A model generated the notes under the pieces. That model had not been told where the DNA came from, did no database searches, and saw only the letters and a list, made by a program, of their open reading frames with translations. Shown here one piece after another: positions 13,686 through 47,377 of a DNA stretch of 64,000 bases. Each line of letters opens with the position of its first letter. The first letter of the stretch is position 1. Source of the stretch: Thermoanaerobaculia bacterium (lineage in GTDB: Bacteria > Acidobacteriota > Thermoanaerobaculia > Multivoradales > J023); the NCBI GenBank assembly GCA_036397835.1, contig DASWIG010000188.1, positions 18,964 to 82,963 on the forward strand, read 5' to 3'. The translations under genes and the position numbers were made by a program.

Positions 13686-13689
13686 TATC

Positions 13690-24300: not shown

Positions 24301-27300
24301 TCGCCGGCACCATGTACTCGGGGAGGCGCCGCGCCAGGTAGCTCCGGAGGTCCGAATCCGCCGGCGCGGGCTCGTCACGCGGCACCAGGTAGGCCACCAG
24401 CCGCCGCCGGCTGCGCTCGGGGCCCATCGCGACGACGGCCGCCGAGCGCACGTCCGGGTGGCTCTCAAGAGCCGCTTCGACCTCGCCCAGCTCGATCCGA
24501 TGGCCCTGGATCTTGACCTGGTGGTCCTCGCGGCCAAGAAACTCGATGGTCCCGTCAGGAAGGAACCGGCCCAGATCGCCCGTCCGGTAGAGCCGTCGTC
24601 CGCTCGGCGAAGCCACGAAGCTTCGCGCCGTCTTGGCGGCATCGCGCCAGTAGCCCCGCGCCAGGCCCACCCCTCCGATGAAGAGCTCGCCGATCACCCA
24701 TACCGGGCGCGGAGCCAGGAAGGCGTCCAAGACGTGAAATTCCTGGTGGCGCATCGCTCGCCCATAGGGCACGCTGTTCCAGGACGCCTCCACCTTCCCA
24801 ATCGGGTACAGGATCGACCAGATCGAGGCCTCCGTGGCGCCGCCCAAGCTCACCACCTCGGCCCGCGGGCACACCGCCCGGATCCGATCCGGCAGATCCA
24901 CCGGAATCCAATCCCCCGAGAGCAACACCAATCGCAACGAGCTCAAGTCCACGTCGTGTCGGCCGTCCGCCCACTCGATCAGCATCTCCATCAGCGCCGG
25001 GACCGTGTTCCAGACCGTGACTCGCCGCGCCGCGATCAGCTCGGCCCAATGCCCGGGATCCCGCAGCGCCGCGCCCTCCGGCAAGACCACGGCTCCGCCT
25101 GCCGACAGCAAGCCGAAGACGTCGTAGACCGAGAGGTCGAACGACAGAGACGAGAGATCGAGCACCCGGTCGCCCGGACCGATGCGAAAGCGTTCATTGA
25201 CGTCGAGGACCGTGTTGAGGGCGGCACCGTGCTCGATCATCACGCCCTTCGGCCGGCCCGTCGAGCCGGAAGTGAAGATCACGTACGCCAGCTCGCCGGA
25301 ACCTCCCGGTTCGCGGCGGACAGGTTCCTGGAAGCTTGACGGATCCTGATCGCCCTCTTCCGTCACCACCAACGGCGACACGGCGGTCGGCCATTCCGGC
25401 GACTTGGCGAGCCACGGCTGCGTCACGGCGACGGACACCTCGGCGCTGGCCATCAGCTCGGCGCGGCGGCGTCGCGGCAAGGCCGGATCGATCGGCAGGT
25501 AGGGGGCGCCGGAATCCAGGATGGCCAGCACCGCCACGACCTGCTCCCAACCCTTGTCCATGACGACCGCGACCGGACGCTCGGCCGCCGCGCCCGCGCG
25601 GCGCAAGCGCGCGCTCAAGATTCGAGCGCGGCGCTCCAGCTCTCCGTAGCTCAGCTCCGTGAACGGCTCCATTCCGCCACGCAGTGGAGCGACCACCGCC
25701 GTCCGGTCCCGGTTCACCGCGGCCTGGGCCAGGACCGGCTCATGAAGCCTCCCGCTACCGGCGGCGTGCGGGATGGCCCCGCCATGGACACGCGCCCACG
25801 GCGCGTCGGCGGGCACCATCCGGCCGGCCAGATCCGGACGGCTGGCTCGCCACGCGAGGTCGTCCTCCGCCAGAGATTCGAGCAGGTCCCGGTAAGCGGT
25901 CAGCATGGCGTCGAGAAGGCCCGCTGGGAACAGCTCTTCGACCGCGTCCCAGTTGAACCGCAGCGCCCCCTCCTGCTCCCAGACCTGGTGATCCAGCCAC
26001 ACCTGGGGCGTCTGGGAGACGCTGTAGACCGACTCGCCGGAAGCTCCCCGCCGCTCGTCCCCGGGACGGTCAGGAGTCGCCACCGCGGGCATCGTCAAGG
26101 TGCTGGTGACCACCACGGGCATCAGAGCGCCCGGGGCGCGGCCCTCGAGCCGCGCCAGCTCGCGCAGCACCCGCACCCCGCTGAAGTATCGATGATCGAG
26201 ATCCTCCCAGAGCCGTGCCTGGATCGCCCGGGCCCGCTCCTCAAACCGCGCCCCCTGCCGGAGGTCCACCTCCAGCAGCGTCAGGGACGTGAAGTCCCCC
26301 ACGATCGAGTCGACCTCGGGGTGAATCGGAAGCCGGTTGAAGAGCGTCAGGTTGAGGGTGAAGCGAGGATTGCGCGACCAGGTTGCCAGGACCTCGGAGA
26401 AGGCGGCCAAGATCAGGGCCGAGGACGTCAGGCCGCAGGGCGCGGCCCGTTGCTTCAAGCGCTTCCATGCCGGAGCCGCGAGGCTCGCGGAACGGCGGAG
26501 GAACCGAGGGCGCTCCACGGACTCGGGGGCCCGGGCCAGCGGGAGCTCCGGCGCCGGGGGCAGTCCGGCGAGGCGAGCCATCCAGTAGTCGCGCGAGCGC
26601 CGGTAGAGCGCGGAGCCCTCGAGCTGACGCTCGGCGAGGACGTAATCTCTGAACGACAGATCGGGAGGCTGCAGCCGGAGGGTGGGGTCGGCCGCCAGCC
26701 GGGCGTAATCGCGGGCCAGGATGCGGAAGCTCCAGGCGTCCCAGATCAGCGCGTCGCAGCTCAGGTGGACCCGTGCGCGCCCTTGCGGCAGCAGGGAGGC
26801 CTTGACCTCGAAGAGCGGCCATCGGTCGGTGGCGAGCACTTGGTGCGACAGGGTGCTCCGCATCCGCGCGAGCTCACGCTCCCGCTCCTCGGTCCGCATC
26901 CGGCGGAGGTCGCGAACCTCGATCTCGTAGGCGGGCACGTGCTCGAGGATCCGCTGGGTGCCGTCGGCGAGGACGACCATCCGGAGCATTTCGTGGCCCG
27001 CGACCAGGCGGTTCAGAATGCTCTCCAGGCTCGCCATCTCGACTCCCTGGGCTTCGATCTCCAGGTAGCTGTGGGTCGCGACGTTGCCCAGCTCGAAAGC
27101 GGCCTGGCGGCCTATCCAGTAGGCCTGCTGGACATCGTTCAAGGGGAACGGCTCGAAGCGCCGCGCCGGATCGGGCTCGACCCGGGGCAGCGCCTCCGGC
27201 ACCACGGGCTCGATCTCCAGGGCCTTCTCGCGCAGGATCTCTTCGGCGAGCCCGGCGACCGTCGAGGCCTGGAAGAAGACCCTGAGTGGCAACCTCGCGT

Positions 27301-30300
27301 GGAAGCGCCGCTCAACCCGGTCGAGGAGCTGCGTCGCCAGGAGAGAGTGCCCCCCGAGCATGAAGAAATCGTCGTCGACTCCCAGCTCGTCGAGCTCCAA
27401 GACCTCTCTCCAAAGGGCGGCCATCGCCTCTTCCGTGGGGTTGCGGGGCGCCACGAGGCCGGCGGCGGTCCGCGGACGCCGCTCCTCGGCCAACGGCGTC
27501 GTTGCGATCGGACGGCGTTCGGCGATCATCGAAGCCACCGGCAGCGTGTAGCCCGAAAACCGCTCGACGATCAGGGCGTGACGCTGTGCTGGACTGAGCA
27601 GCGGGAGCTCCATGATCGGCCTGTCCGGCTCCGACAGCGCGGCGACCACCAGAGCCTCGAGGTGCCCCAGCATTCGCTTCGTGGTGGTGGCGGCGAAGAG
27701 GTCGATCCGGTAACCCAGCTCCAGGGCGACGCGACCTTTTCGTTCCGCCGCCGCCAGGGTGAGATCGAATTTCTCCGTCCTCGCGGCGACGTCGAGAGGC
27801 TCGATACGCAGCCCTGGCACCTGCGCCTCGGCCTCCCGCAGCGGGCTGCTGGCGAAGAGGAACATGACCTGGAAAAGAGGAGAGTGGCTGAGGCTTCGTC
27901 GCGGCGAGAGCTCCTCCACCAGCCGTTCGAAGGGCAGGCTCTGGTGCGCGAAACCGTTCAGGGCCTCGCGGCGCACGTGATCGACCAGGGCCTCGAACGA
28001 CGTGACTTCGGCGATGATGCTGCGCAATACCAGGGTGTTGACGAAGAAGCCGATGAGCCCCTCGAGCTCGATGCGGTCGCGGCCGCTGACCGGTGTACCG
28101 ACACAGATGTCCTGCTGGCCCGTGTAACGAAGGAGAAGCGCCTTGAAAGCGCTCATCAGGGTCATGAATAGGGTCGCTCCCCGTATCCGGCTGAACTCCC
28201 GCAGCCTGTCGGACAGCGCCGTGGAGAGCACTCGGGTCGAGCTGGCGCCGCGATACCGCTGCACGGCGCCGCGCGGGAAGTCGGCGGTCAGCTCGAGCGT
28301 CGCCGGCGCACCTTCCAAGCGCTTCTTCCAGTACTCGAGATCGGCCGCGATCCCTTGGCCTGCCAGCCAACGCCGTTGCCAGTGGCCGAAGTCGAGGTAC
28401 TGGATCGGCAGCTCCGGCAACGGAGAGGGACGGCCGGCCGACCGCGCCGCATAGAGGGTCATCGCCTCCCGCGTCAGAACCTCCATCGACCAGCCGTCGC
28501 TGACGATGTGGTGAAGGGTGAGGATCAGCGCGTGATCGTCGGGACTCAGCTCCAGCAGGAAGAGCCGCAGGAGAGGGCCTCGGGCTAGATCGAACGGCCT
28601 CAGCGACTGGATGGCCGCGATCCTCCTTGCTTCCGGCTCACGCGCCGCCGCGATCAGGCCGGACAGGTCCACGCGCGGCAGCGATACCCTGGCAACGGCG
28701 GAGATCTCCTGGATCGGGCGCCCCTCTCGCGAGGAGAAGACCGTGCGCAGAGTCTCGTGACGCCAAACGATCTCGGCCAGGCTGCCCGCGAGCGCCTCGA
28801 CGTCGAGACCGCCGCGCATCCGCAGCGCGACCGGGATGTTGTAGACCGCGTTGCCCGGCTCAAGCTGATCGAGGAACCACAGCCGCTGCTGTGCGAAGGA
28901 AAGAGGCTTTTCACCTTCCCGAGGGACGACCTCCATGGCCGGCAGGTCGGAGCGCCGGCCCGCCCGGTTCCCGCGATCGATCAGGCCCGCGAGCTGCGAG
29001 ACCGTCGGCGAGGTGAAGACCTCCTGGAGCGACACCTCGGCGCGAAAGGCCACGCGAATCCGCGACACCAGACGAGTCACCAACAGCGAGTGGCCTCCGA
29101 GATCGAAGAAGCTGTCGTGAATGCCGACTTTGTCGACTGCGAGCAGCTCGGCCCAGAGACCGGCCAGGATCCTCTCCGTTTCACTGGCCGGAGCCACGTG
29201 TCGGCGCCTCAGGAGCTTGCGCGCCTCCTCAAGGCTCGGCAACCGGCGGGTGTCGACCTTGCCGTTCAGAGTCAACGGCATCCGTCGCAGATGGACGAAG
29301 AGGTTGGGTATCGTGCCCTCGATCAGAAAACGCTTGAGGTGGCGGCGCAAATCCGCCTGGTCGAGCATCTGCCGGGACACGTAGTAACCGAGCATCACTT
29401 GGCGGCCCGCCCCTTCCTCGGTCACCACGACCGCGGCGTCGCGGATCTCCGGATGACGGATCAGGGCGAGACGGATCTCGTTGAGCTCCACCCGGAAGCC
29501 GTGGAACTTGACCTGGTTGTCCATCCTGCCGAGGAAATCCACGCCGCCTTCCGGAAGCAGCCGGGCGTAATCGCCGGTGCGGTACATCCGCATGCCGCCG
29601 CGCCGGTCGAACGGGTCGCAGACGAACTGCTGCGCCGTCGTCCCCGGACGCGACAGGTAACCCTGGGCCAACCCCGGCCCGGCGAGAAACAGCTCGCCGC
29701 TCATGTTCTCCGCCACCGGCTGCAGCGCGCCGTCCAGCAGGTAGATCCGGGCCCCGGCACCAGCCCGGCCGATCGGCACGAAGGCCCGGTCGTCCTCCTC
29801 GGGCTCGAAGCGGTGGATCATGCAGCCGACGGTCGCCTCCGTCGGACCGTATTCGTTGTAGATCTCGATCTGTCCGCCGAAGCCCTCGTGGACGGACCGG
29901 GCCAGGCGGCTCGTCAGAGCCTCGCCGCCCACCACTAGGCGCCGGATTCCACATGCCTCCCGGCGATGCTCCGTGAGCAGCGCCAGGTGGCTCGGCGTCA
30001 GCTTCAGCACGCTGGGGCGCCGCTCGGAGAGAATGCGCGGGAAGGGGGACTGGCCGTCAATCCAGGGATGAACGAGGATCGCTCGGCCGGCCGCGAGCGG
30101 CGTCAGGACGGAGGTCACGGTGAGGTCGAAGGCGAGCGAAGAATGGAGGACGAAGTCGAGGTTCTCGCCGCTCAGGTAGACCTCCATTGCCCATTCGACA
30201 TAGTTCGCCAGCGCGGCGTGCGAAACCGCCACTCCCTTGGGCTGACCGGTAGAGCCGGAGGTATGGATCACATAGGCGAGGTCGGCCCCGCCGAGCTCCG

Positions 30301-31489
30301 GCCATCCTCCGGTGGGCGAGGCGGCCAACTCCTGCTCCCAGCCGGCGTCCAGGCAGAGCGTCTCGACGCCGGCCAGGGTCTCGAATCCGTCGATCCCGGA
30401 CCGCGACACCACCAGGGCGATGCCGGCACCGCGGACGGCCGACGACCTCCTTTCCGGCGGGTGCTCCGGATCCAGAGGCACAAAGGCGGCTCCCGCCTTC
30501 AGGATGGCTAGAATCCCCGCGACGGCTTCGGGCGATGGCTCGAGGCAAAGCCCTACGCAGTCCCCTCTTCCTACGCCACGGTCCCTCAACACGCTCGCAA
30601 GTCCCGTCACGAGGCGACCCAGCTCCCCATAGGTCATCTGGCCATGCTCTGAAAGGACGGCCTTGGCCTCGGGATTGGCCGCGACCCGCTCCTCGAAGTG
30701 CTGGCCCGCGCCGCGCGTTGGGGACCGCGAACGACCCCGCGGACAGACGAGCCACTTCGACGGCCGGGTCCGGGAGAGAAGCCGAAGGGCCGAGATCTCG
30801 AGCTCGGGCGCGCCCGCCATTCGTCCAAGCACGTCCTCGAGCTGCGCCGCGAAGGTCGCCACCGTCGAGTGCTTGAACAGGTCCCGGCGGTACTCCACCT
30901 CGGCCCCGAGCCCGCCCCGGCCGGCCGAGAAGGCGACCACGACCTCGCTGTGCGCTTCACGGTAGTGCTCCTCGTCGTTGACGGCGTCCAGAAGGACGCC
31001 GACGCGCAGAAGGCTCCGGGGGTTCGCCCAACCCCGATCCAAGATCTCGGGAATCTTCGCGAGAGGATACTTCTGGTGGGTAAAGGCTTCGGACAGGCTG
31101 TTCTTGACGGCGTTCAGGACCTGACGGACGGTGTGGGTAGGTGCCACACGGTCACGAATCGCCAGAATCCGGTTGAAGGCGGCAGCCTCCTCGAATCGCC
31201 GGTGGACCGCCGTACCGACGACGACGTCCTCGAGGCCGGTGTACTTGGCGAGGACGACCTTGACCGCCGAGATCAGGAAGGCCAGGGTCATGGAGGCATT
31301 GTCCGAGCACACCCGGCGCACCGCGCTTACGGTCGCGGGAGCTAGGCCCAGATCCAGGCGGCCGAAGGGTCCGGCACGGCGGCCGGTGGCCAGGTAGTCG
31401 CAAGGCAATCCGGCGGCGGACCAGTCTCCGGCAAGCTTCTGCGCCCAGTACTTCCTCTCCGTCTCCAGCTCTTCGTCGAGAAGACTCAC
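18374..31489 (-). CDS. Giant NRPS (~4370 aa from the GTG at 31489; ORF remains open to 31834): truncated-C - A - PCP - C - PCP (A-less) - Cy - A - PCP - Cy - A(Ox-embedded) - PCP - E-like
   Basis: Motifs in order. C-terminal half of a C domain only (ERKYWAQKL...LPCDY...TLAFLISAVKVVLAKYTGLEDVVVGTAVHRR, no HHxxxDG). A core LAYVIHTSGSTGQPKGV (~30190-30285). PCP FFDLGGHSLLVTRL (~29100). C domain LSFAQQRLWFL...HHIVSDGWS (~28500). PCP DDDFFMLGGHSLLATQL (27335-27380), reached only ~390 aa after HHIVSD, so there is no A domain. Cy1 FPLNDVQQAYWIGR (27121-27180) and DALIWDAWS. A core LAYVIFTSGSTGRPKGV (~25280), PCP LFDLGGNSLAAIQL (~24100). Cy2 FSLNEVQQAYWIGR (~23900) and DILLIDAWS. A core LAYVIFTSGSTGKPKGV (~22030) with an inserted Ox domain (KYRYPSAGNLYPVQTYLYV, ~20770). 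PCP FFEMGGDSIKGILF (~19940). C-terminal E-type domain (LGPVPLAPAQ..., VVHRLAADAASW, EGSRSR...TIGPFGNVFPL) and acidic tail EEFAEADFDEEDE. The first ~115 codons of the track ORF (R/G/P-rich; contains the VATQPVATQPVAV tandem-repeat translation) are judged non-coding; GTG at 31489 is the most upstream plausible start, but the real start is uncertain. Confidence 0.85.
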   Translation of the reverse strand: MSLLDEELETERKYWAQKLAGDWSAAGLPCDYLATGRRAGPFGRLDLGLAPATVSAVRRVCSDNASMTLAFLISAVKVVLAKYTGLEDVVVGTAVHRRFEEAAAFNRILAIRDRVAPTHTVRQVLNAVKNSLSEAFTHQKYPLAKIPEILDRGWANPRSLLRVGVLLDAVNDEEHYREAHSEVVVAFSAGRGGLGAEVEYRRDLFKHSTVATFAAQLEDVLGRMAGAPELEISALRLLSRTRPSKWLVCPRGRSRSPTRGAGQHFEERVAANPEAKAVLSEHGQMTYGELGRLVTGLASVLRDRGVGRGDCVGLCLEPSPEAVAGILAILKAGAAFVPLDPEHPPERRSSAVRGAGIALVVSRSGIDGFETLAGVETLCLDAGWEQELAASPTGGWPELGGADLAYVIHTSGSTGQPKGVAVSHAALANYVEWAMEVYLSGENLDFVLHSSLAFDLTVTSVLTPLAAGRAILVHPWIDGQSPFPRILSERRPSVLKLTPSHLALLTEHRREACGIRRLVVGGEALTSRLARSVHEGFGGQIEIYNEYGPTEATVGCMIHRFEPEEDDRAFVPIGRAGAGARIYLLDGALQPVAENMSGELFLAGPGLAQGYLSRPGTTAQQFVCDPFDRRGGMRMYRTGDYARLLPEGGVDFLGRMDNQVKFHGFRVELNEIRLALIRHPEIRDAAVVVTEEGAGRQVMLGYYVSRQMLDQADLRRHLKRFLIEGTIPNLFVHLRRMPLTLNGKVDTRRLPSLEEARKLLRRRHVAPASETERILAGLWAELLAVDKVGIHDSFFDLGGHSLLVTRLVSRIRVAFRAEVSLQEVFTSPTVSQLAGLIDRGNRAGRRSDLPAMEVVPREGEKPLSFAQQRLWFLDQLEPGNAVYNIPVALRMRGGLDVEALAGSLAEIVWRHETLRTVFSSREGRPIQEISAVARVSLPRVDLSGLIAAAREPEARRIAAIQSLRPFDLARGPLLRLFLLELSPDDHALILTLHHIVSDGWSMEVLTREAMTLYAARSAGRPSPLPELPIQYLDFGHWQRRWLAGQGIAADLEYWKKRLEGAPATLELTADFPRGAVQRYRGASSTRVLSTALSDRLREFSRIRGATLFMTLMSAFKALLLRYTGQQDICVGTPVSGRDRIELEGLIGFFVNTLVLRSIIAEVTSFEALVDHVRREALNGFAHQSLPFERLVEELSPRRSLSHSPLFQVMFLFASSPLREAEAQVPGLRIEPLDVAARTEKFDLTLAAAERKGRVALELGYRIDLFAATTTKRMLGHLEALVVAALSEPDRPIMELPLLSPAQRHALIVERFSGYTLPVASMIAERRPIATTPLAEERRPRTAAGLVAPRNPTEEAMAALWREVLELDELGVDDDFFMLGGHSLLATQLLDRVERRFHARLPLRVFFQASTVAGLAEEILREKALEIEPVVPEALPRVEPDPARRFEPFPLNDVQQAYWIGRQAAFELGNVATHSYLEIEAQGVEMASLESILNRLVAGHEMLRMVVLADGTQRILEHVPAYEIEVRDLRRMRTEERERELARMRSTLSHQVLATDRWPLFEVKASLLPQGRARVHLSCDALIWDAWSFRILARDYARLAADPTLRLQPPDLSFRDYVLAERQLEGSALYRRSRDYWMARLAGLPPAPELPLARAPESVERPRFLRRSASLAAPAWKRLKQRAAPCGLTSSALILAAFSEVLATWSRNPRFTLNLTLFNRLPIHPEVDSIVGDFTSLTLLEVDLRQGARFEERARAIQARLWEDLDHRYFSGVRVLRELARLEGRAPGALMPVVVTSTLTMPAVATPDRPGDERRGASGESVYSVSQTPQVWLDHQVWEQEGALRFNWDAVEELFPAGLLDAMLTAYRDLLESLAEDDLAWRASRPDLAGRMVPADAPWARVHGGAIPHAAGSGRLHEPVLAQAAVNRDRTAVVAPLRGGMEPFTELSYGELERRARILSARLRRAGAAAERPVAVVMDKGWEQVVAVLAILDSGAPYLPIDPALPRRRRAELMASAEVSVAVTQPWLAKSPEWPTAVSPLVVTEEGDQDPSSFQEPVRREPGGSGELAYVIFTSGSTGRPKGVMIEHGAALNTVLDVNERFRIGPGDRVLDLSSLSFDLSVYDVFGLLSAGGAVVLPEGAALRDPGHWAELIAARRVTVWNTVPALMEMLIEWADGRHDVDLSSLRLVLLSGDWIPVDLPDRIRAVCPRAEVVSLGGATEASIWSILYPIGKVEASWNSVPYGRAMRHQEFHVLDAFLAPRPVWVIGELFIGGVGLARGYWRDAAKTARSFVASPSGRRLYRTGDLGRFLPDGTIEFLGREDHQVKIQGHRIELGEVEAALESHPDVRSAAVVAMGPERSRRRLVAYLVPRDEPAPADSDLRSYLARRLPEYMVPATFVALATLPLTPNGKIDRRALPAPEEAAPKTRRDAGPTTPVERELTVIWQEILGRERVGAHESLFDLGGNSLAAIQLVNRVSETFGVDVPLRRLFQAPTVAGLAAAVDQMRAEQERSASLPAALPTIEPDRARRFEPFSLNEVQQAYWIGRGDAFELGNVASHGYMEIQSASLDLQRLEGAWQRLIERHDMLRAVVLADGRQRVLRDVPPYRIAVADLRGEPPAVVASELEAIRERMSHQVLPADRWPLFELRATRLEEGVRLHVSSDILLIDAWSSLILYRELMRLYQDPDAELPPLDVTFRDYVAAEAAFRDSPPYERSRRYWLDRLESLPPAPELPLARRPGTLTRPRFSRRRAVLERGRWSRLKKRAADAGLTPSGLLLAAFADGLATWSKSAEMTINVTTFNRLPLHPQVNEVVGDFTSLTLLQVDARGGKTFERFARTVQEQLWLDLEHRYFNGVSVLREWARARGRTASATMPVVFTSTLFHGEEPSQTGGPAAVGASEETVSAGQDGRSVYGISQTPQVWLDHQVSEGPEGLHFNWDAIEDLFPDGLLDAMFAAFHDLLLRLADQESTWSLRRPARVPEEQLAVLDQANATAAPAPRHLLQTPFMLRAARSPEDLAVLADGVRLSYGELARRARCLAERLRGLGVGPSRLVAVVMEKGWEQVVAVLGILEAGAAYLPIDARVPDERRQFLLENGRISVAVTQGGLTRELAWPPGVELVAVTADDPAAGTAQGSGAPPACGPRDLAYVIFTSGSTGKPKGVMIDHRGALNTVHDVNERFGIGPADRVLGLSSLSFDLSVYDVFGLLAAGGALVLPEPAAARDPERWAELIASHGVTVWNTVPALMEMLVEWASRSPGADLTSLRRVLLSGDWIPVDLPDRIRRLCPNAEVVSLGGATEASIWSILYPVREVPPSWTSIPYGRPMRNQRFHVLDQDLRTRPVWVPGELYIGGDGLALGYWRDAPTTASRFVAEPRSGERLYRTGDLGRYLPDGTIEFLGREDLQVKIQGHRIELGEVEAALEAHPLVRSAVVTAVGTRSRQRLAAYLVPEFAESRDSATAPDAASCASRLGPRGPGPGSSAAAPAASPVGPLDALGSLDFKLSEPGLRRDLDDRQGLQLLQLDADETLARGFGTRRSHREFLGETVPFSALSRLMGALGQVRLGDFPLPKYRYPSAGNLYPVQTYLYVKPAAVEDAPAGLYYHHARDHQLVLLQAGESVDRSLYGVHNQPIFDQAAFALFLIGDLRAIRPLYGESARDFCLLEAGYMSQLLMSEASGLGLGLCPIGDLAFEDLRGRLVLGDDHVLLHSHVGGRVAASAQSPRVRYPSPTFVVRAPGAGQTAEEAEAPLVSGSVDRAAWIGGVREFLRRKLPEHMVPALFVPLEKLPLSANGKVDRGALPTPDQLGQDRRETAVAPRTAVERTLARIWSEVLGVDEIGVHDNFFEMGGDSIKGILFITRAAEAGLTVSTRHVFEHQTIAALAARLCEQGQADQGTTLGPVPLAPAQVALLEEQTAPERAAHALWLEERRPHEAAAISRAVMELARRHDALRLRIERLVSGFWQVASSSRNGCPFAEIDVSSVPDGRWSGLLAAIEAQARVGFDVTRGPLLRVARVKSPADRPSRLLLVVHRLAADAASWPVLLAELDRVCRPPDTPPASPPRAAPISFRRWAEQVSRHSPSAELPESAHREASTPFLLVDHPERRSRTRGVTLRTISTHLSTELTSTLLCRVAETLRAEIEEVLLAAVLRVLARRSATPALRVDVEGSRSRRFLDLPDTTATIGPFGNVFPLRMELGADTSPTEALRRVKQRLRSLEGDGLLYGQLRYLRPQTETATRLRAEPPADVLVGFLGNLDVPGGDSAGWLAAVADGVQVLGPRGLYNRPLEVTGCVLAGRLRVDWTYNGLLFRRGTIESLAREGVAALGELIEEGAAGGSAYAPAEFSEADLSHDELERLVEEFAEADFDEEDE
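18420..19800 (-). other. E-like (epimerisation-fold) C-terminal domain with a degenerate active site
   Basis: Preceded by an E-type PCP (GGDSIKGI). Has the E-type N-terminus GPVPLAPAQ, the S-W order in HRLAADAASW (E domains: HHxxxDGxSW; C domains: HHxxxDGWS) with the second His replaced by Arg, and EGSRSR in place of EGHGRE. Confidence 0.55.
20340..20950 (-). other. FMN-dependent oxidase (Ox) domain embedded between A-domain cores A8 and A9
   Basis: Insertion in the third Cys-type A domain: ...LGDFPLPKYRYPSAGNLYPVQTYLYVKP...GLYYHHARDHQLVLL...LEAGYMSQLLMSEASGLGLGLCPIG...RLVLGDDHVLLHSHVGG (20340-20400). This matches the EpoB/BlmIII/MtaD-type Ox domains that aromatise thiazoline to thiazole. 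Confidence 0.75.
22700..23930 (-). other. Cy domain 2 of the giant NRPS
   Basis: FSLNEVQQAYWIGRGDAFELGN and VSSDILLIDAWS. Confidence 0.8.
25900..27180 (-). other. Cy domain 1 of the giant NRPS
   Basis: FPLNDVQQAYWIGRQAAFELGN and LSCDALIWDAWS (DxxxxDxxS). Confidence 0.8.
27300..29000 (-). other. A-less module: C domain (~27650-29000) followed directly by a PCP (~27300-27480)
   Basis: HHIVSDGWS at ~28500 and the PCP Ser motif at 27335-27380, separated by only ~390 aa; there is no AMP-binding core between them. Confidence 0.75.
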
Positions 31490-31824
31490 GGCGACAGGCT
31501 GTGTAGCGACAGGCTGTGTAGCGACAGACCGTGTATCGACCCCCAAGTCGTCTCCTTCATGCCTGGGCCTCCGGATACACCGACAACGTCGCCGGCCGTC
31601 CTCGTGGCCGCCGACGGACCCACGCTGACCATCAGTGGCCCCTATCCTACCCGGCCGTCTTTCCGGGCGCAAGAGCGCCCCCGGCCTCCGCGCTGAATCG
31701 GCGCCGTCGGGCGGACTCGCGCTTCGCCTTCGACGCGATCCCTGGTAGCCTTGGGCCTCCGAAGCGCTCGGCGGGCTGGGGACCCGCAGCCGGCCCTCGG
31801 GGCGCTCTGGGTTGGTAGCGCCGG
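31490..31824. promoter_or_regulatory. Divergent intergenic/promoter region between the giant NRPS operon (-) and the glycosyltransferase-like gene (+)
   Basis: ~335 nt with no credible coding frame (both overlapping track ORFs are R/P/G-rich). Contains the tandem 15-mers and a second direct repeat, TGGGCCTCCG, at 31564-31573 and 31752-31761. No -35/-10 consensus assigned. Confidence 0.5.
31492..31536. repeat. Three tandem 15-bp direct repeats: CGACAGGCTGTGTAG (31492-31506), CGACAGGCTGTGTAG (31507-31521), CGACAGACCGTGTAT (31522-31536), plus a partial fourth copy CGACCCCC
   Basis: Read directly from the sequence. Lies immediately upstream of the putative GTG start of the giant NRPS, inside the divergent intergenic region. 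Confidence 0.9.
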
Positions 31825-32895
31825 ATGCCGCCAACCGGTCCTTCGCAGGTCATGACTCTGGCGATCGTCTCCACCGTCCGCGATGCCGGCAAGGTGCTCG
31901 ATTCCTTCATTCGGTACCATGTTGCCATAGGCTTCGATCGCCTGTTCATCATCTTCGACGACCCGTGCGACCCCATGGCCGAGAGTGCCCGGAGATACCC
32001 GCAGGTCACGGCTCTCACCAACGACGACGGTCTGCGGCGGCGTTGGAAGACCCGGAGGTCCTACGCGAGGGTAGGCCCCTTCATCGACGACCACGTGATG
32101 TCCAGGCAGATCTTGAACGCCGAGGTCGCCATCGAGATGGCGCTCGAGATGGGCCTGGAGTGGATTCTCCATATCGACGTGGACGAGCTCTTCCACTCCC
32201 AAGAAGCCCCCAAGAAGCATTTCGAATCGCTGGCGGAGCGTGGCATCGACTTCGTGACTTATCCCAACCACGAAGCCGTTCCGGAAGCGTTCAAAATCGA
32301 CGATTACTTCAAGACGGTCACGCTCTTCAATAAGAACGCTTACACGCTTGAAGCCGGGCAAGCTCGCGGTCGGCGCCGCTTCCTCTACTACGGCAACGGC
32401 AAATCCGCGGCGCGCCTTTGCCGGAACCTGATGGCAAAGAGCGTTCACGAGTTCATGCTGTCTCGAGAGCGGAGCTGGGCCTACCGGAACTTCCTTCACC
32501 TCTTCTTGCCCTATCGGAAGATTCCGCTGGTCAAACCGCGGGTGTCGTTCGGCGGATCGTGGCGCAAGAGGGGGAGCGGGGGAAGCAGGGCTGCGTCGCA
32601 AGATGTCCACAAGCTGCCGGTGATCCTCCATTACGCCTGTTGCGGATTCCAGCACTTCTGGCAAAAATACAAGACCCTGGGATCGTTTCCCGACCGTTGG
32701 TTCGGCCGCGTCGAGCTTTCGCGACAGGTGCCCTTTCACGTGCAAGCGCGAAACGTCGTGATGACGCAAGGGCGGGAGGCCGCCAGAAAGCTGTACCAGG
32801 AAGTAGTCATGGCTGGCGGCGAGCAGGAAACGCGTGACCGCCTCGAGGCCGGCACCTTCTGCCGCATTGTCGAGCCCTCTCGCCTCTTGGCCTGA
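31825..32895 (+). CDS. GT-A fold glycosyltransferase-like protein (GT2/GT92-DUF23-like; DxD-type motif); low-GC gene
   Basis: 356-aa ORF with ordinary (non-low-complexity) composition; ATG at 31825 (alternative ATG at 31852 giving MTLAIVSTVRD). N-terminal LAIVSTVRDAGKVLDSFIRYHVAIGFDRLFIIFDDPCDP resembles the nucleotide-sugar-binding start of GT-A enzymes, and LEWILHIDVDELFH is a DxD-type motif. GC ~55-58% versus ~72% in the flanking megasynthases, with different codon usage (AAA, AAT, TTT, TTC and AAG codons). Confidence 0.55.
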   Translation: MPPTGPSQVMTLAIVSTVRDAGKVLDSFIRYHVAIGFDRLFIIFDDPCDPMAESARRYPQVTALTNDDGLRRRWKTRRSYARVGPFIDDHVMSRQILNAEVAIEMALEMGLEWILHIDVDELFHSQEAPKKHFESLAERGIDFVTYPNHEAVPEAFKIDDYFKTVTLFNKNAYTLEAGQARGRRRFLYYGNGKSAARLCRNLMAKSVHEFMLSRERSWAYRNFLHLFLPYRKIPLVKPRVSFGGSWRKRGSGGSRAASQDVHKLPVILHYACCGFQHFWQKYKTLGSFPDRWFGRVELSRQVPFHVQARNVVMTQGREAARKLYQEVVMAGGEQETRDRLEAGTFCRIVEPSRLLA

Positions 32896-32919
32896 GGCGG
32901 AGCCTCGTTAGGTCTACTA

Positions 32920-32950
32920 GGACGTGACTTGCGCACGCTCGGTCACGTCC
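32920..32950. terminator. Perfect 9-bp inverted repeat GGACGTGAC-(13 nt)-GTCACGTCC between convergent stop codons (32895 and 32969); candidate bidirectional terminator hairpin
   Basis: Stem 32920-32928 pairs with 32942-32950; loop 32929-32941; no U-tract. Confidence 0.45.
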
Positions 32951-32968
32951 AGCACGGGCGAAGTGCTT

Positions 32969-35900
32969 CTAGAAGGCGAAATCGTCGTCGAGCTCCTCCA
33001 CGTGGATCGGCGTCGCGAGGGCGGCCGTCTCCCGCCGCGAAAGCACGTCGAGCTTGCTCAGCCGCGCCTCGGGGGTCGCGACGATGCTCTCCAGCAGGCG
33101 CCCGAACCGGTCGAGAAGATTGCGAATCGTCATCGGGCTGAAGAGGTCCCGGCTGTACTCGAGCTCGCCACGAAGGCCGTCCGGGCTCGGCCACACGTTC
33201 ATGAGCAGGTCGAATTTGGCGCTCCGTCTCTTGATCCTGAATCCGCTGAGCTGCAGGCCTGGAAGCTGCAAGGGCACGGAAGGCGCGTTGAGCAGTGAGA
33301 ACACCACCTGGAACAGCGGGTTGTAGCTCGGATCGCGCTCTGGTTGGAGCTCTTCCACGAGCTTCTCGAAAGGCGTGTCCTGATGGCCATAGGCATCGAG
33401 CGTCGACTCGCGTATCCGCGCGAGGAACTCAGTGAAAGGCGGATCGTCGATCAGCTCCACCGGCAACAGGAGCATATTGACGAAAAAGCCGACCAGGGGC
33501 TCGACTTCGGTCCGCGTCCGGTGCGCCACGTTGGTCGCCACGACGAATCTCCGCTGTCCCGAGTGCCGCCAGAGCAGCAGGTCGAACGCCGCCAGGAGCG
33601 TCATGAAAAGCGTCGCTTGGTTCTCGCGGCTCAGGCTCTCGAGCCGCAGGGTGAGGTCTCGTGAGAGCTGAACGTTCTCGGCCGCGCCGCGAAACGACGG
33701 CACCGGCGGCCGTGGGTAGTCGGCGAGCCCGGCGAAGAGGCGCGGGATCCCCTCGAGGCGTTCACGCCAGTACTTCAGCTCACGCTCCAACACTTCTCCG
33801 CGCAGCCAGTTCCGCTGCCAGCGGGCGTAGTCGCGGTACTGGAGCGGCAGGTCAGGGAGCAGCCGAGCCGCTTCGGCGAGGCCGGCTCCTCCCTTGAAGG
33901 CAGCGTAGAGCGTCTTCAGCTCTCCCGCGATGATCGCCTGAGACCAGGCGTCCGAGACGATGTGGTGCTGAGTCAGGAGGACGACGTGAAGTCTCGCGGC
34001 GAGGCGCACCAGGGTGATGCGAACCATCGCGCCGCGGGCCAGGTCGAACGGCCTGGCGGCCTCCGACTCCGCCAGGCGGACAAGCTCGGCGTCGCGGTCC
34101 GGCTCACGGAGCGAGCTCAGGTCGGCGACGGGGAGGTAGGAAGGCCTGATGGGACCGACGACCTGCACCGGCTCGCGGCCGTCGGAGGCCTCGATGGTCG
34201 ACCGGAGCACCTCGTGGCGCCGAAGGATCTCTCTCAGGCTCGCCGCGAGAGCCGTGACGTCGAGGTGCCCCTCGAGCCGCAGCGCTCCGTTCACGTTGTA
34301 GGCCGAGCTGGCGCCCCGCAACTGGCTCAGCCACCACAACCGCTGCTGGGCGAAGGAAAGCTCTGCCGAACGGGCTGTGGGATCGGCAAGGATGGCGGGC
34401 GGCGCCGGCGCGTCGCCACGCCTCATTCGGGCGATCTCGGCGCTGAGCTCCTCCACCGTCGGGTGCTCGAAGAGCTGGCGCAAGCCCACCTCCACCCCGA
34501 GGCTCCGACGAAGCCGGGAAACCACCTGCGTGGCGAGCAGGGAATGGCCGCCAAGGTCGAAGAAGTTGTCGTGGGGGCCGAAAGGCTCGATGCCGAGCAC
34601 GTCAGCCCAGATTCCCGTCACCAGCTCCACGATGGGAGTCCGCGGAGTCGCCGGCGACACGGTCTGCGGCGTGACCTCCGGAGGCGGCAACGCCCCCCGG
34701 TCCACTTTGCCGTTGCGATTCAGGGGCATCCTTTCCAGGAAGACCAGCGCCGACGGGACCATCGGATCGGGGAGGCGCTCGCGCAGGAACCGGTTCAGCT
34801 CCTCTCGGCTCGGCGCCGCGGCGGGAGCCACCACGTAACCCGCCAGCCTCGGATTCCCGGCGCCGTCGCGGGTCAGCACGGCCAACGCTTCACGCACCGC
34901 TGGATAGGCGGCAAGAGCCGCTTCCACCTCGCCGAGCTCGACGCGGAATCCGCGGATCTTGACCTGCTGATCGGCTCGGCCCAGATACTCCAATCCGCCG
35001 TCGGCGAGACGACGGGCAAGGTCGCCGGAGCGGTACAGGCGAGCGCCGGCCCGCTTGCTCCAGGGATGGGGAACGAAGCGCGAAGCGGTCAAGCCCGGGC
35101 GGTTCAGATACCCCCGGCTCAAGCCTTCGCCGGCTACGACGATCTCCCCCGTGACCCCAAGGGGAAGCACGGCCAGCGCCGCGGAGACGAGATGGACCTC
35201 GAGGTCCGGAAGCGGCCCGCCGATAAGACTTCCGCCGACTCTCCTGGCGGTGTGAGCCCGCCTGATCGGCAGCACCGTGACGTGCACGGTCGTCTCGGTG
35301 ATGCCGTACATGTTCACCAGCACGGGGCTCGACTCCCCGTGCCGATCGAGCCACGGGCGAAGTGAGCCAAGATCCAGGGCCTCGCCTCCGAAGATCACCC
35401 GCCGCAGAGCCAGCGCTCCGGGCTCGGCGACGTCGCGAAGGCTGCGAAAGGCCGAAGGAGTCTGATTGAGCACGCACACGCGTTCTCGCACCACGAGAGA
35501 ACAAAGCTCCTCGTGGGAGCGACTCGTCCAATACGGCACCACCACCAGGCGGCCGCCGTGAAGGAGAGCCCCCCACAGCTCCCAGACCGAGAAGTCGAAA
35601 GCGTAAGAGTGAAAAAGGGTCCAAGTGTCGCCGGAATGGAAGCCGAACCAGGGCCGCGTGGTCTCGAAGAGCCGCACGACGTTGTGGTGGGTCACCACCA
35701 CGCCCTTCGGTTCACCCGTGGAGCCCGAGGTGTAGATCACGTAGGCGGCCCGATGCGACTTGGGCGAGGTGTCCGGCCGGCACCTGTCAGGCTCTGCCGC
35801 GGGCCATCGGTGATCGAGATGGATCCTGCGCACACCGCTTTCCGACAGCTTCGGCGCGAGGGCGTCGGTCGTCAGCAACGCGGCGATGCCGGAGTCCTCG

Positions 35901-38900
35901 ATCTTGCGGGCCAGACGGTGGCGGGGCTCGTCGGGATCGAGCGGCACGTAGGCGCCACCGGCATTGAGCGTGGCGAGGATCGCCACGACCATTTCCGGCG
36001 TCCGCTCCAGGAAGAGACCGACGCGGACCTCGGGAGCGATACCGAGACGGCGGAGCCGGTCGCCCAACCGCCGCGACGTCCGGGCGAGCCGGGCGTAGCT
36101 CAGGGCGGCGCCTTCGAAGCTCACCGCCACGGCATCCGGGGTGCGCCCTGCCTGGACCGCGAAGAGCCCGTCGAGCGTCTTCTCGGGGCACGGCAAAGAA
36201 TCCGAGCCGCCCGAGCATTCCGTGAACGTCTGGTGGCTCTCGGCAACGCTCAGCAACGGGAGCGCATCGAGTCGCGTCTCGGCGGCGTCTTCGTCGGCCA
36301 TCGCCTCCAGAAGACGCCGATAGTGTCGCGTCATCCTTTGGACGGTCGTGGGATCGAAGAGCTCGGCGCGGTACTCGATCGCTCCGCCCAGCCGCTCGGC
36401 CGTCTCGCCCACCTGGAGGGTCAGATCGAAACGCGCCACGGTGACCGGTTGGCCAAGGGCCACGAGCTCGACGTTGCGCAACCTCGGCGGCACCCGCGGC
36501 AGGTTCTGGAGGACGAAGACCACCTGGAAGATCGGCGAATGAGCAAGGTCCCGCTGGGGCCTCAGCTCTTCCACCAGCTTCTCGAACGGGAGCTCCTGGT
36601 GGGCGAACGCCGCCAAGGTCGCTCGCCGCACCCGGCCGAGCAAGGTCCGCAGCGTCGGGAACGCTCGGCCGGAATCGCCACGAACGTCGGTGCGCAAGAC
36701 CAGCGTGTTGACGAAGAAGCCGATCAACGCCTCCGTTTCCACCTGCGTACGGCCAGCCACCGGGACTCCCACCACCACGTCGCGTTCGCCCGTGTAGCGC
36801 GAGAGCAGGGTCTGGAAGGCGGCGAGCAAAGTCATGAAGAGAGTCGTTCCTTCGCGGCGGCTCAGGAGCCGGACGCGGCGTCCGAGCTCGGGCGGCAGGT
36901 TCAGGGGACGTCGGCCGCCGCGCGAGCCCGGCTGCGCCGGCCGTGGGCGGTCGGCCGGAAGATTCAGAACCGGCGGCGCGCCCGCGAGGCGATCCCGCCA
37001 ATAGGCCAGATCCTTCTCCAGGTTCTCTCCCGCGAGCCAGCGCCGCTGCCACACGGCATAGTCCGCGTAGGAGATCGGGAGCTCCGGAAGCGGCGATTCC
37101 CTCCCGGCCGCCGAGGCCTCATAGAGCGCCACCATCTCCCGTGCGAACAGGTGCATCGACCAGCCGTCCGCGGCGATGTGGTGGAGGGTGACGAAAAGGG
37201 AGTGGTCCTGGTCGTCGACGCGTGCCAGGCTCACCCGGAGCACGGAGCCGCGGGCGAGATCGAAAGGCCGCAGAGCTGACGCCGCGGCGAGCCTCTTGAG
37301 CTCCTCCTCGCGGACTGCGGAGGGCAGCCGGCGCAGGTCGACCGCCGGCACCGGCACCGGAGCCGGCGGCAAGACCTCCTGCCGCGGTCCGTTGTCTTGC
37401 TCGGAGTACACGGTTCGCAAGATACCGTGGCGGCGAACGATCGCGGTCAGGGCATGGACCAGAGCCGCCACGTCGAGTCGGCCCACGAGGCGAAGCGCCA
37501 GGGGGATGTTGTAGGCCGGATTGATGGGCTCCAGCCGATTCAAGAACCAGAGGCGTTCCTGGGCGAAGGAGAGCGGCAGGATCCGGCTCGAGGCCGGGAG
37601 GAGGGGCGCGAGCCGCGGCCTCGGTGGCCTCGGTGATCCGGCTTCGGAGTTCATGGTCCGTTCGACCACGCGCGCCAGAGATCCGAGCGTCGAAGCCTCG
37701 AAGACCTCCTGGAGAGCGACCTCCACGCCGAACAAAGCGCGAATGCGGGAGGAGACCCGAATCGCCATCAACGAGTTTCCGCCGAGCTCGAAAAAGTCGT
37801 CGTGGAGACCGACCTGGTCTCGGTCCAGCAGATCACACCAAATCGTAGCCAGAGTCTCTTCGAGAGGCGTGCGCGGCGAGGCCCGGCTCTCTCGGGCATC
37901 CGAGGCGCCCGGATCAGGCAGGCCACGGCGATCGATCTTACCGCTCGGAAGACGAGGAAAGTCGTCCAGGACGACGAAGACCGACGGGATCATCGAGGCC
38001 GGCAGCTTTTCGGCGAGCAAGGCGCGCCAAGGCTCCGCGTCGCTTCCCGCGGCCGCGGCGCCCGACACGTAGGCCACGAGGCGCCGATCCGGTGTCGCGC
38101 CGGCGCCACGGTCCCCGCCGGGCTGCCACGTCACGACCAGGGCCTCCCGCACCCCGGGGAGCTGCCGCAGCGCCGCCTCGATCTCGGCCGGTTCGATGCG
38201 GTGCCCGCGGACCTTGACCTGGTGATCGATGCGGCCGCGGAACTCCACGTTGCCGTCGGCCAGATGACGCGCCAGATCGCCGGTTCGGTAGAGGCGTTCG
38301 CCCGGCTGCCGTGAAAGGCCGTCGGGAACGAACACCTCCGCGGTGCGGGCGCCCTCGCGGAGGTAGCCGCGCCCGAGGGCGACACCCCCTACGTGAAGCT
38401 CTCCCAGGAGACCGACGGGAACGACGCGCTGCGCGCGGTCGAGCACGAAGGTCCGCAGGCTGCGCAGAGCCCGTCCCACCGGCGTATGGAGGACGCCCTC
38501 CGCCAGCGGCCGCGCGAGGCGGAAGTGGGTGACGTCGTCCGAGCACTCGGTCGGCCCGTAGGCGTTGAGGAGAGGGACCTCGGGGAAGCGGCCGAGCCAG
38601 CGCCGAGCCAGCGCCGGCGCCAGGGCCTCGCCGGTCGGAATCAGCCACCGCAGCCGTCCGAGAGAGGCCTGCGTGCCCTGCTCTTCGATCTCCGCGAGAA
38701 GGTATTCGAGCAGGGAGGGAACCACCTCGAGATGGGTCACTCCGCCGGCAAGCGTCGCCCCGAGAAGCCTGCGCGGGTCCGGGGCCTCTTCTTCGGGAAC
38801 CACGTGGACGCGACCGCCGACCACGAGCGACGCCAGGAGTTGCCAGACCGACACGTCGAAGCACTGCGACGCGTTCTGAGCCACCACGCTCCGGGCTCCG

Positions 38901-47362: not shown

Positions 47363-47377
47363 GGGCTCTCTCCGCGA

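Follow-up and report, generated by a model that had tools for sequence, protein, structure and literature searches.

Introduction

To our knowledge, the tailoring glycosyltransferases (GTs) of bacterial secondary metabolism are overwhelmingly of the GT-B type (family GT1). The subject of this analysis is a GT gene at positions 31852..32895 (plus strand) of a 64,000-nt stretch of contig DASWIG010000188.1 from a Thermoanaerobaculia bacterium, hereafter the window, where it lies between genes of a non-ribosomal peptide synthetase (NRPS) and polyketide synthase (PKS) cluster. As a tailoring GT in a biosynthetic cluster, it is of a known kind. Its product is assigned a GT-A fold from a predicted structure, and sequence comparison places it in a loop-marked, NRPS-embedded subgroup of an uncharacterised GT-A family.

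The best structural matches of the model are GalS1 and SunS. GalS1 (family GT92; PDB 8d3t/8d3z) elongates pectic galactan in the Golgi of plants, and the likeness is structural only, with an identity of 10–13%, a TM of ~0.41 and no match to PF01697 (GT92/DUF23) at E <= 1; the window GT, in contrast, is bacterial and cytosolic and lies in an NRPS cluster. The SunS-type glycocin S-glycosyltransferases (PDB 7msp/7msn) share 14–18% identity with the window GT without a sequence match, and their fold departs from that of the window GT in its C-terminal half. The substrate of SunS is a ribosomal precursor peptide, whereas the window contains NRPS neighbours and neither a precursor gene nor other genes for ribosomally synthesised and post-translationally modified peptides. 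Enzymes of the GT1/GT-B type (EryCIII, UDPGT type) have the same expected role, the decoration of secondary metabolites, and two of them adjoin a homologue of the window GT in locus L007. Their fold is GT-B rather than GT-A, and the window protein matches neither PF00201 nor PF06722.

Bleomycin is a thiazole-containing NRPS–PKS product with Asn, Thr and Cys modules and a beta-hydroxy glycosylation site; its GTs are BlmE and BlmF, and BlmD carbamoylates its sugar. The window resembles this system in its Asn, Thr and Cys modules and its TauD-family dioxygenase, with GT, TauD and carbamoyltransferase occurring together in the related locus L177; the module order of the window is not colinear with that of bleomycin. 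In the work of Reitz et al. from 2019, non-catalytic interface domains resembling condensation (C) domains are said to recruit TauD-type beta-hydroxylases. The window has a TauD gene followed by gene D, whose C-like domain lacks HHxxxDG, and the half C domain of gene F adjoins the GT. The analogy stops short of the GT, in that no evidence connects the half C domain of gene F with it, and GT homologues elsewhere adjoin adenylation–thiolation (A-T) proteins without a C-like domain.

An NRPS-associated loop

The subgroup is marked by an inserted loop at residues 202–256 of the GT (32455..32619, plus strand), which comprises 55 residues with a net charge of ~+10. It sits between a VHxF and an ILHY motif, just before the conserved histidine of the latter. 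Across 115 non-identical sequences of the family, this segment has a median length of 15 residues; it measures 55 residues in the window protein (one short of the longest of the 115), 54 in locus L093, 51 in L121/L117, 40 in L038/L037 and 33 in L091 and L007. Every NRPS-adjacent member of the survey has at least 33 residues between the two motifs. The enlarged segment is common to NRPS-linked members and is not found in the aligned members linked to DUF6065 or in other non-NRPS members. Among loci with at least 5 kb of flanking sequence, obvious duplicates being collapsed, NRPS genes adjoined six of the eight long-loop GTs and none of the 67 short-loop GTs (Fisher p = 1.4e-7; as the loci share ancestry, the evidence is at most as strong as this value suggests). 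Eight NRPS-adjacent sequences were compared; in six of them (five independent loci), the loop has a net charge of +6 to +11.

The association also held in a prospective check on members that were picked by loop sequence from the first search and had not been used in deriving the loop rule. All three (P0101, P0004 and P0076) have NRPS genes on one or both sides. P0101 (locus L174; basic loop of 51 residues) lies in the order FAAL-ACP-C, GT, NRPS, with MbtH nearby, and P0004 (L175; basic loop of 52 residues) in the order glutamate mutase, A-T, GT, C and further domains. P0076 (L177) has a basic loop of 24 residues, under the length cutoff, and lies in the order NRPS, TauD, NRPS, GT, followed by a convergent carbamoyltransferase gene. 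A fourth protein looked at, P0058, has a Pro-rich loop of 28 residues and an envelope-biogenesis context. NRPS genes occur within 10 kb of the GT in the window and in L007, L038, L090, L093, L121, L174 and L175, and also in L177. In all, the subgroup is found within NRPS clusters at ~9 independent loci, the window included, and its carriers are Acidobacteriota, Bacteroidota and unassigned metagenomic bacteria.

A survey of half a million GT-A sequences found that hypervariable loops, which extend from a common core, carry family-specific acceptor determinants (PMC7185993). It is proposed that the inserted loop of the window GT contributes to the acceptor-recognition surface. Because the loop subgroup recurs in NRPS clusters, the GT is read as an enzyme of the pathway and not as a chance insertion, and the pathway role that the original prediction had suggested gains from these repeated occurrences elsewhere. 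On balance, the gene probably encodes a GT dedicated to the NRPS–PKS cluster, a reading that we hold with moderate confidence. Such an enzyme would be a soluble, metal-dependent (DxD plus His) GT-A nucleotide-sugar transferase, which would move a sugar from a nucleotide sugar of primary metabolism onto the peptide–polyketide. A housekeeping donor is expected because the window holds no sugar pathway genes. That genuine sugar chemistry is involved is supported by the neighbours of two homologues, GT1 and DegT genes in L007 and the carbamoyltransferase gene in L177.

Several points weigh against a dedicated pathway role. The loci are phylogenetically non-independent, so that the Fisher p-value overstates the evidence. 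Two long-loop loci, L010 and L014, have no NRPS gene in the available flank, and a basic loop is not universal, since the loops of the NRPS-linked L007 and L091 are acidic and shorter. The GT is opposite in strand to its NRPS neighbour only in the window and in L038. No sequence-level match was found to a solved structure in the PDB, searched with the single protein and with a profile, or to any NCBIfam family, and the databases searched held no characterised member of the GT family. The window represents one source strain, without a GT-less relative for comparison. The FkbM methyltransferase of unclear target aside, the window contains no sugar-biosynthesis or sugar-modifying gene, and neither the donor nor the acceptor is readable from sequence.

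Fold and conserved motifs

The N-terminal third of the GT, residues 19–136, matches Pfam family PF13704 (Glyco_tranf_2_4, GT-A clan) at profile positions 1–97 of 98, scoring 50.6 bits vs a gathering score of 27.5 (E = 2.8e-13). The AlphaFold2 model (pLDDT 88.7, pTM 0.88) has a Rossmann-like α/β/α nucleotide-binding fold and is confident outside the loop; within the loop, which is predicted to be disordered, pLDDT falls below 50 at residues 221–243. Because the PF13704 match, the AlphaFold2 model and the conserved motifs agree, the predicted GT-A fold with its hallmark motifs is regarded as established. The fold test attached to the original prediction therefore came out in its favour, and the hallmarks that it had read in IIFDDPCDP and HIDVDELF are both present, with an invariant DxD. 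For GT2/GT92/DUF23, which it had named for comparison, there was no counterpart at the sequence level, where the protein matches neither PF00535 (GT2 core) nor PF01697. A PDB profile match to a designed PPR protein was rejected as spurious and repeat-based.

In a 45-sequence alignment, the GT keeps 26 of 26 invariant columns, which include D36, P38, D109, D111, E112, N139, E141, K184, H199, H260 and R300. The first Asp-rich nucleotide-binding motif, FDDPCDP (F35–P41; 31954..31974, plus strand), contains the invariant D36 and P38, and D37 and D40 are conserved in at least 90% of the sequences. The DxD motif D109-V-D111 (32176..32184, plus strand), presumed to bind the metal and the nucleotide-sugar phosphate, is invariant together with E112. 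His260 of ILHY (32629..32631, plus strand), likewise an invariant column, is presumed to be the C-terminal metal-binding histidine (C-His) of the GT-A core, a role taken from the GT-A literature (PMC7185993). Glu141 of NxEAVPE is the presumed xED-type base; both assignments were made by position only.

The search of 5.8 billion proteins yielded 154 relatives; identical metagenome copies aside, the closest has 44% identity. Those relatives that have a name carry only the automatic label 'glycosyltransferase family 2 protein', and nothing relevant on PF13704 or DUF6065 turned up in the literature. In 80 genome loci, the gene neighbourhoods of the family span many phyla and share no single conserved neighbour.

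Several members carry additional domains. Two metagenomic relatives (P0119 and P0071) are fused to an N-terminal Peptidase_C39-like domain of the bacteriocin-processing type, and an Agarivorans relative has a C-terminal alpha-amylase catalytic domain; loci L047 (9998-12907), L043 and L050 are the fusion and long-form loci. Relatives from Cellvibrionaceae and Teredinibacter are about twice the usual length, and the C-terminal extension in L043 has no Pfam match. Given these domain fusions, members of the family have evidently come to act on widely differing acceptors. Another branch is represented by P0058 (L176 10001-11068; Pro-rich loop of 28 residues), which stands between the mla and kdsD/lptCAB operons in an envelope-biogenesis region. 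In this locus, from a betaproteobacterial metagenome-assembled genome, the GT lies alone between mlaFEDCB and kdsD-kdsC-lptC-lptA-lptB-rpoN, which hints at an outer-membrane or lipopolysaccharide-related role for the Pro-rich-loop branch.

Integrity of the gene

The plus-strand ATG-to-stop open reading frame (ORF) of 31825-32895 encodes 356 residues, and ATG 31825 is retained as an alternative start. Gene calls on 23 contigs from several JGI/ENA metagenome samples begin at Met10 (31852), which gives a protein of 347 residues; the 347-residue numbering is used here because the N-termini of the homologues line up with Met10. Six metagenome contigs are 99.93–99.99% identical to the window over 21 kb without gaps, and the window is therefore taken to represent a single uncultured strain. 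A plasmid megablast of the GT locus gave no match.

Frame-specific GC analysis identified the GT as the sole plus-strand ORF with a coding-type GC1/GC2/GC3 pattern in the window, all remaining coding-type ORFs being on the minus strand. It is flanked by NRPS genes on both sides, at 73 nt (gene E) and 305 nt (gene F). The original description of a lone plus-strand gene between megasynthase genes was thus accurate.

Relative to most homologues, the protein has a 13-residue deletion and a 40-residue insertion, which might be taken as signs of a decayed or non-functional gene. Against decay, the ORF is uninterrupted, the protein retains each of the 26 invariant columns, the model is confident outside the loop, the insertion is common to the NRPS-linked subgroup, and every contig recovered, from several samples, has the same sequence. 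Loss of function is highly improbable.

Gene neighbourhoods of related glycosyltransferases

Genomic contexts were examined at 80 loci from GTDB genomes and 80 metagenome loci, plus single look-ups for individual matches. In a neighbour-joining tree, two contexts recur among the closest relatives: a DUF6065 module and NRPS clusters. The Pyrinomonadaceae locus L007 (42% identity) has the order C-A-T-TE, ABC transporter, methyltransferase, TEII, GT, GT1, beta-lactamase, the sugar aminotransferase DegT, GT1, SbnA and SbnB. In L090 (44%), an FkbM methyltransferase and the GT precede glutamate mutase, AsnB, an Asp/Glu racemase, A-T and C-A domains. The genes of L093 (38%) lie on a single strand as A-T, GT, C-A-T and further domains. 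In L121, which equals L117, the order is NRPS, GT, radical SAM, A-T and NRPS, and the GT start overlaps the NRPS stop. In L038/L037, from Crocinitomix (30%), the GT runs towards the 3′ end of an NRPS gene, a convergent arrangement also seen in the window. Glutamate mutase, AsnB, racemase and radical-SAM partners were all absent when looked for in the window, and the FkbM methyltransferase of the window has no significant similarity to that of L090.

Stand-alone A-T didomains recur beside these GTs. The GT lies directly between such a didomain and the first C domain in L093 and L175, and a stand-alone A-T occurs in the same locus in L121 (two genes downstream) and L090. The A-T proteins of L093, L175 and L090 are mutually related at 45% identity. 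Their best match in the window is the N-terminal A-T of gene H (13715-8562, minus strand; A-T-C-A(Ser)-T), at 501–576 bits, against <=340 bits for other modules. Substrate codes were read from A domains by alignment to GrsA-PheA, for which the reference sequence used reproduced the published code DAWTIAAICK. The A-T codes are DARHVALMAK and DGRHLALMAK vs DARHLALMTK in gene H, and are of the type DARH(V/L)ALMxK. This type presumably resembles the code of microcystin McyB2. Because glutamate mutase adjoins the A-T proteins in L090 and L175, a 3-methyl-Asp or iso-Asp-type substrate may be inferred for the DARH type.

A second A type, D(I/V)WE(I/V)TADDK, is found in module 2 of gene E of the window, in L007 and in the stand-alone A-T of L121, and also in L093 and L117 by A-domain similarity alone; in L007, this A domain adjoins the SbnA/B pair, which forms 2,3-diaminopropionate (Dap). 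Furthermore, Thr- or Ser-type A domains occur in L090, L093, L117 and L121. The recurrence of these types shows that the GT clusters have building blocks in common, and it does not identify the acceptor. Residues 1–660 of gene H (11700-13715, minus strand) are compositionally the most atypical stretch of the cluster, with a GC3s of 0.73 and a residual of -3.8 points. The N-terminal A-T of gene H and the GT possibly form a shared mobile sub-cluster.

These neighbourhoods bear on when the sugar would be transferred. One alternative is that the GT acts on-line, on a residue or peptide tethered to a T domain, with the basic loop docking to the acidic carrier or to the neighbouring megasynthase. 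Such timing would fit the A-T adjacency in L093 and L175, the A-T genes in the L121 and L090 loci and the position of the GT after FAAL-ACP-C in L174, as well as the two recurring specificity types of the A-T partners, both of which also occur in the window. The positive charge of the loop in most of the NRPS-adjacent sequences compared is also consistent with docking, and the cluster already has a trans-acting enzyme in TauD, which stands beside a catalytically dead C-like domain. However, gene adjacency does not show timing, the loops of L007 and L091 are acidic, and the window itself has no stand-alone A-T; the loop is also predicted to be disordered, so that the docking surface cannot be modelled. 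We know of no GT-A enzyme that acts on a T-tethered substrate. On-line transfer is, on this evidence, rather unlikely.

A broader form of this idea is that the long-loop subgroup constitutes an unrecognised class of assembly-line GT-A enzymes, which would act on carrier-tethered substrates, dock through the basic loop and possibly be recruited by the half C domain. We regard this as decidedly unlikely. If it were so, the candidate substrates would be the residue of the (Me)Asp- or 2,4-diaminobutyrate (Dab)-type A-T partner or the Asn of the first module of gene F, and gene F might recruit the GT through its half C domain, much as interface domains recruit TauD hydroxylases.

The second recurring context is a module of DUF6065, a 217-residue protein and the GT, seen in L089 (8417-11011), L092 (8532-11041), L035 (8474-11005) and L087 (10001-11802); its GTs have short loops. 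The 217-residue partner has no Pfam match, starts with GCGRSGT and appears sulfotransferase-like by eye. Neither DUF6065 nor the 217-residue protein occurs in the window.

Base composition and the truncated condensation domain

The gene had been regarded as horizontally acquired, and its insertion as possibly having split one ancestral operon into two and truncated the downstream C domain. In its fullest form, this alternative holds that the GT is a passenger, namely an envelope or polysaccharide GT that was acquired horizontally and inserted between NRPS operons, with the deletion of half a C domain. In its favour, the GT ORF has the lowest GC content of any 1,071-nt stretch in the window and is alone in its orientation, gene F starts with half a C domain, and many family members occur in non-NRPS contexts such as the mla/lpt region and the DUF6065 module.

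The low GC content proved real, at values other than those first given: the ORF has about 60.7% GC, not 55–58%, and the window 69.3%, not 72%. The description of A/T-ending codons was mistaken, as GC3 is 0.79 and about four-fifths of the codons end in G or C. The protein is rich in Lys, Phe, Tyr, Ile and Asn. Rewritten with the codon preferences of the cluster, its sequence would be expected to have 63.0% GC, a value below that of every 347-codon stretch in the megasynthase genes, and 60.6% is observed. About three-quarters of the GC deficit is therefore due to amino-acid composition, with 2.3 points left for codon choice; an equal or larger negative residual than this -2.3 points is found in 4.5% of megasynthase windows. 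Similarly, the GC3s of the GT is 0.783 vs 0.852 +/- 0.033 for the cluster, and is as low or lower in 3.1% of cluster windows. In the GC and codon profile, the GT is indeed low, but no more atypical than TauD, with a GC3s of 0.785, or the start of gene H, whose first 350 codons have 0.73. Because the GC deficit is mostly a matter of amino-acid composition, base composition lends at most weak support to a recent horizontal acquisition, which is not shown. No mobility genes or flanking repeats were found around the GT in the window, and a search for flanking inverted repeats, as a sign of inversion or of a mobile element, gave only short imperfect pairs. The codon usage thus lies within the range of the cluster, and the claim of recent horizontal acquisition was not supported.

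Upstream of the GT lies the divergent NRPS gene F (18374..31546, minus strand), which encodes 4390 residues with the domain order ΔC-A(Asn)-T-C-T-Cy-A(Cys)-T-Cy-A(Cys, Ox)-T-C-like. Its truncated C domain (30767..31477, minus strand) consists of the C-terminal lobe only, lacks HHxxxDG and is followed by the Asn-type A domain. The first 520 residues of gene F match positions 188–450 only of the 456-position Pfam Condensation profile, and the domain begins exactly at the '...E..YW..L' boundary between the C-domain lobes. The truncation reported in the original prediction is therefore present; the attribution to the GT is the part that fails.

Downstream, the convergent NRPS gene E (32969..44137, minus strand; 3722 residues) has the order C-A-T, C-A(Dab/Dap-like)-T, C-A(Thr)-T and a complete terminal C domain (33074-34372), which matches profile positions 4–455, carries HHIVSDA and ends 15 residues before the stop. 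Because gene E ends in a whole C domain, a simple insertion of the GT into one C domain is excluded. The half C domain of gene F was also considered as a recent duplicate of the terminal C domain of gene E and rejected at 25–28% identity, which is its level of identity to any other C domain of the window. Searches for remnants of the missing N-terminal lobe in 31400-33000 gave chance-level matches only. Junctions split between C and A domains without an inserted gene occur elsewhere in the cluster, as gene G ends in a C domain and gene H starts directly with an A domain; gene B also ends in a C domain and, after TauD, gene D starts with a C-like domain without the catalytic motif. A metagenome search with the N-terminus of gene F for a GT-less cluster found no relatives, and also missed the source contigs.

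A link between the truncation of gene F and the GT is thus not supported by these comparisons, in view of the complete C domain of gene E, the lack of an N-lobe remnant or repeats, the lack of a recent duplicate, the other C/A splits and the arrangement in L177 that corresponds to genes B, TauD and D. On the same grounds, the splitting of one operon by insertion is not sustained. The GT also carries the NRPS-associated loop signature, which runs counter to a passenger origin. The chance that it is a passenger is slim, and a dedicated pathway GT is preferred.

Flanking elements

Gene F and the GT diverge from an intergenic region (31547..31851) that is presumed to act as a bidirectional promoter region and from which the GT may be transcribed, with gene F transcribed in the opposite direction. 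A scan of this region for sigma-70-like promoters found none, and Rfam gave no match on 31300-33200. The best start of gene F is TTG 31546, with AAGGAG upstream at 5-nt spacing.

The GT had been described as bounded upstream by a repeat-containing region. The element in question, a 15-nt x 3 tandem repeat (31491..31540, minus strand), lies ~310 nt away from the GT on its upstream side. It belongs to the N-terminal coding region of gene F, where it encodes a (V/S)ATQP repeat, and so does not bound the GT. It appears as a duplicated VATQP in an unstructured leader ahead of the half C domain. The alternative gene F start GTG 31489 would place it in the 5′ untranslated region.

A hairpin with a 9–10-bp stem (32920..32950) occupies the 73-nt gap between the convergent stops of the GT and gene E. 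The perfect inverted repeat of the original prediction is confirmed at 9 bp (32920-32928 / 32942-32950, with a 13-nt loop); its stability on the two strands is only modestly above that of shuffled sequence (z = -1.6 and -2.1), and there is no U-tract. An intrinsic-terminator scan near the GT found none. A role as a factor-independent or bidirectional terminator is plausible, and transcription of the GT would then end at the hairpin shared with gene E.

The assembly line and its candidate acceptor sites

The gene map was drawn from Pfam searches, an internal domain scan and frame-specific GC analysis, and is given here in transcription order. Gene A (>64000-56400, minus strand) has the order C-A(Asp)-T-C-A(Gly-like, luciferase-like monooxygenase insert)-T. 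Within it, residues 1530–2481 (56400-59410, minus strand) hold an A domain with the code DILSLGVI-K, which is interrupted by PF00296 and lies upstream of the PKS module. Luciferase-like monooxygenases inside A domains are features of the terminal-amide-forming modules of myxothiazol and melithiazol. In contrast to those terminal modules, the interrupted A domain of gene A is internal.

Between genes A and B lies an FkbM-type methyltransferase gene (56387-55464, minus strand; PF05050, 73.7 bits). A longer shadow ORF hides it in ORF lists. The TGA of this gene and the ATG of gene B share bases (ATGA); because of this overlap, gene B is taken to start at 55467 and not at 57582. Gene B (55467-48424, minus strand) is a PKS gene with the order KS-AT-KR-DH-ACP-C. 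Gene C (47378..48610, minus strand) encodes the TauD-family dioxygenase, which is probably a beta-hydroxylase and might thereby supply a site for glycosylation, and gene D (47362-44156, minus strand) encodes the dead C-like domain followed by A-T. The order of a terminal C domain, TauD and a C-like domain without HHxxxDG followed by A-T, as in genes B, C and D (44156-48610, minus strand), is repeated in the unrelated GT-containing locus L177 (1-9996).

Genes E and F, described above, stand on the two sides of the GT. Between its Asn and first Cys (Cy) modules, gene F contains a C-T module without an A domain (residues 877–1437; 27235-28918, minus strand); to be charged, its T domain would depend on a neighbouring A domain or on loading in trans. 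The Cy motifs (DxxxxDxxS), Cys codes and Ox domain of gene F indicate thiazole or thiazoline chemistry. The line continues with gene G (18390-13690, minus strand; C-A-T-C), gene H and gene I (8655-<1, minus strand; KS-AT-ACP-Cy-A(Cys)-T-C-A and further domains). The glycosylated thiazole lipopeptide–polyketide that had been forecast is accordingly backed in its thiazole part by two Cy domains, the Cys codes and the Ox domain, and not in its lipid part, as no lipo-initiation module is visible in the window.

Within this assembly line, the acceptor sites of a dedicated pathway GT would most plausibly be the Thr of gene E module 3, the Ser of gene H module 2 or a beta-hydroxyl made by TauD.

A sugar on the product might instead serve self-protection, whereby the GT would inactivate the finished toxin in the producer until export and the active product would lack the sugar. 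Macrolide glycosylation provides a precedent for self-protection of this kind. Such a role is compatible with every context result and with the GT being a transcription unit by itself, on the other strand from the assembly-line genes. However, neither an extracellular deglycosylating enzyme nor a dedicated exporter was seen in the window, and in most related loci the GT is co-transcribed, and even translationally coupled, with biosynthetic genes. Sequence does not distinguish self-protection from tailoring; we consider self-protection improbable, and tailoring of the product by a dedicated pathway GT remains the preferred reading.

Implications

What would be new here is a tailoring enzyme of the GT-A type without a sequence-detectable relative that is characterised or structurally solved, whose loop subgroup recurs in NRPS operons across phyla and which, in several loci, is encoded directly beside stand-alone A-T didomains. 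If on-line transfer were true, glycosylation would be an on-line step of non-ribosomal peptide assembly, which would be a conceptual surprise. If a dedicated pathway role is confirmed, the window cluster would be predicted to place a sugar on a thiazole-containing peptide–polyketide, and the loop would provide a simple genome-mining marker for glycosylated non-ribosomal peptides. The subgroup would also offer a new enzyme scaffold for peptide glyco-diversification, and a test case for how the hypervariable loops of GT-A enzymes retarget acceptor specificity.

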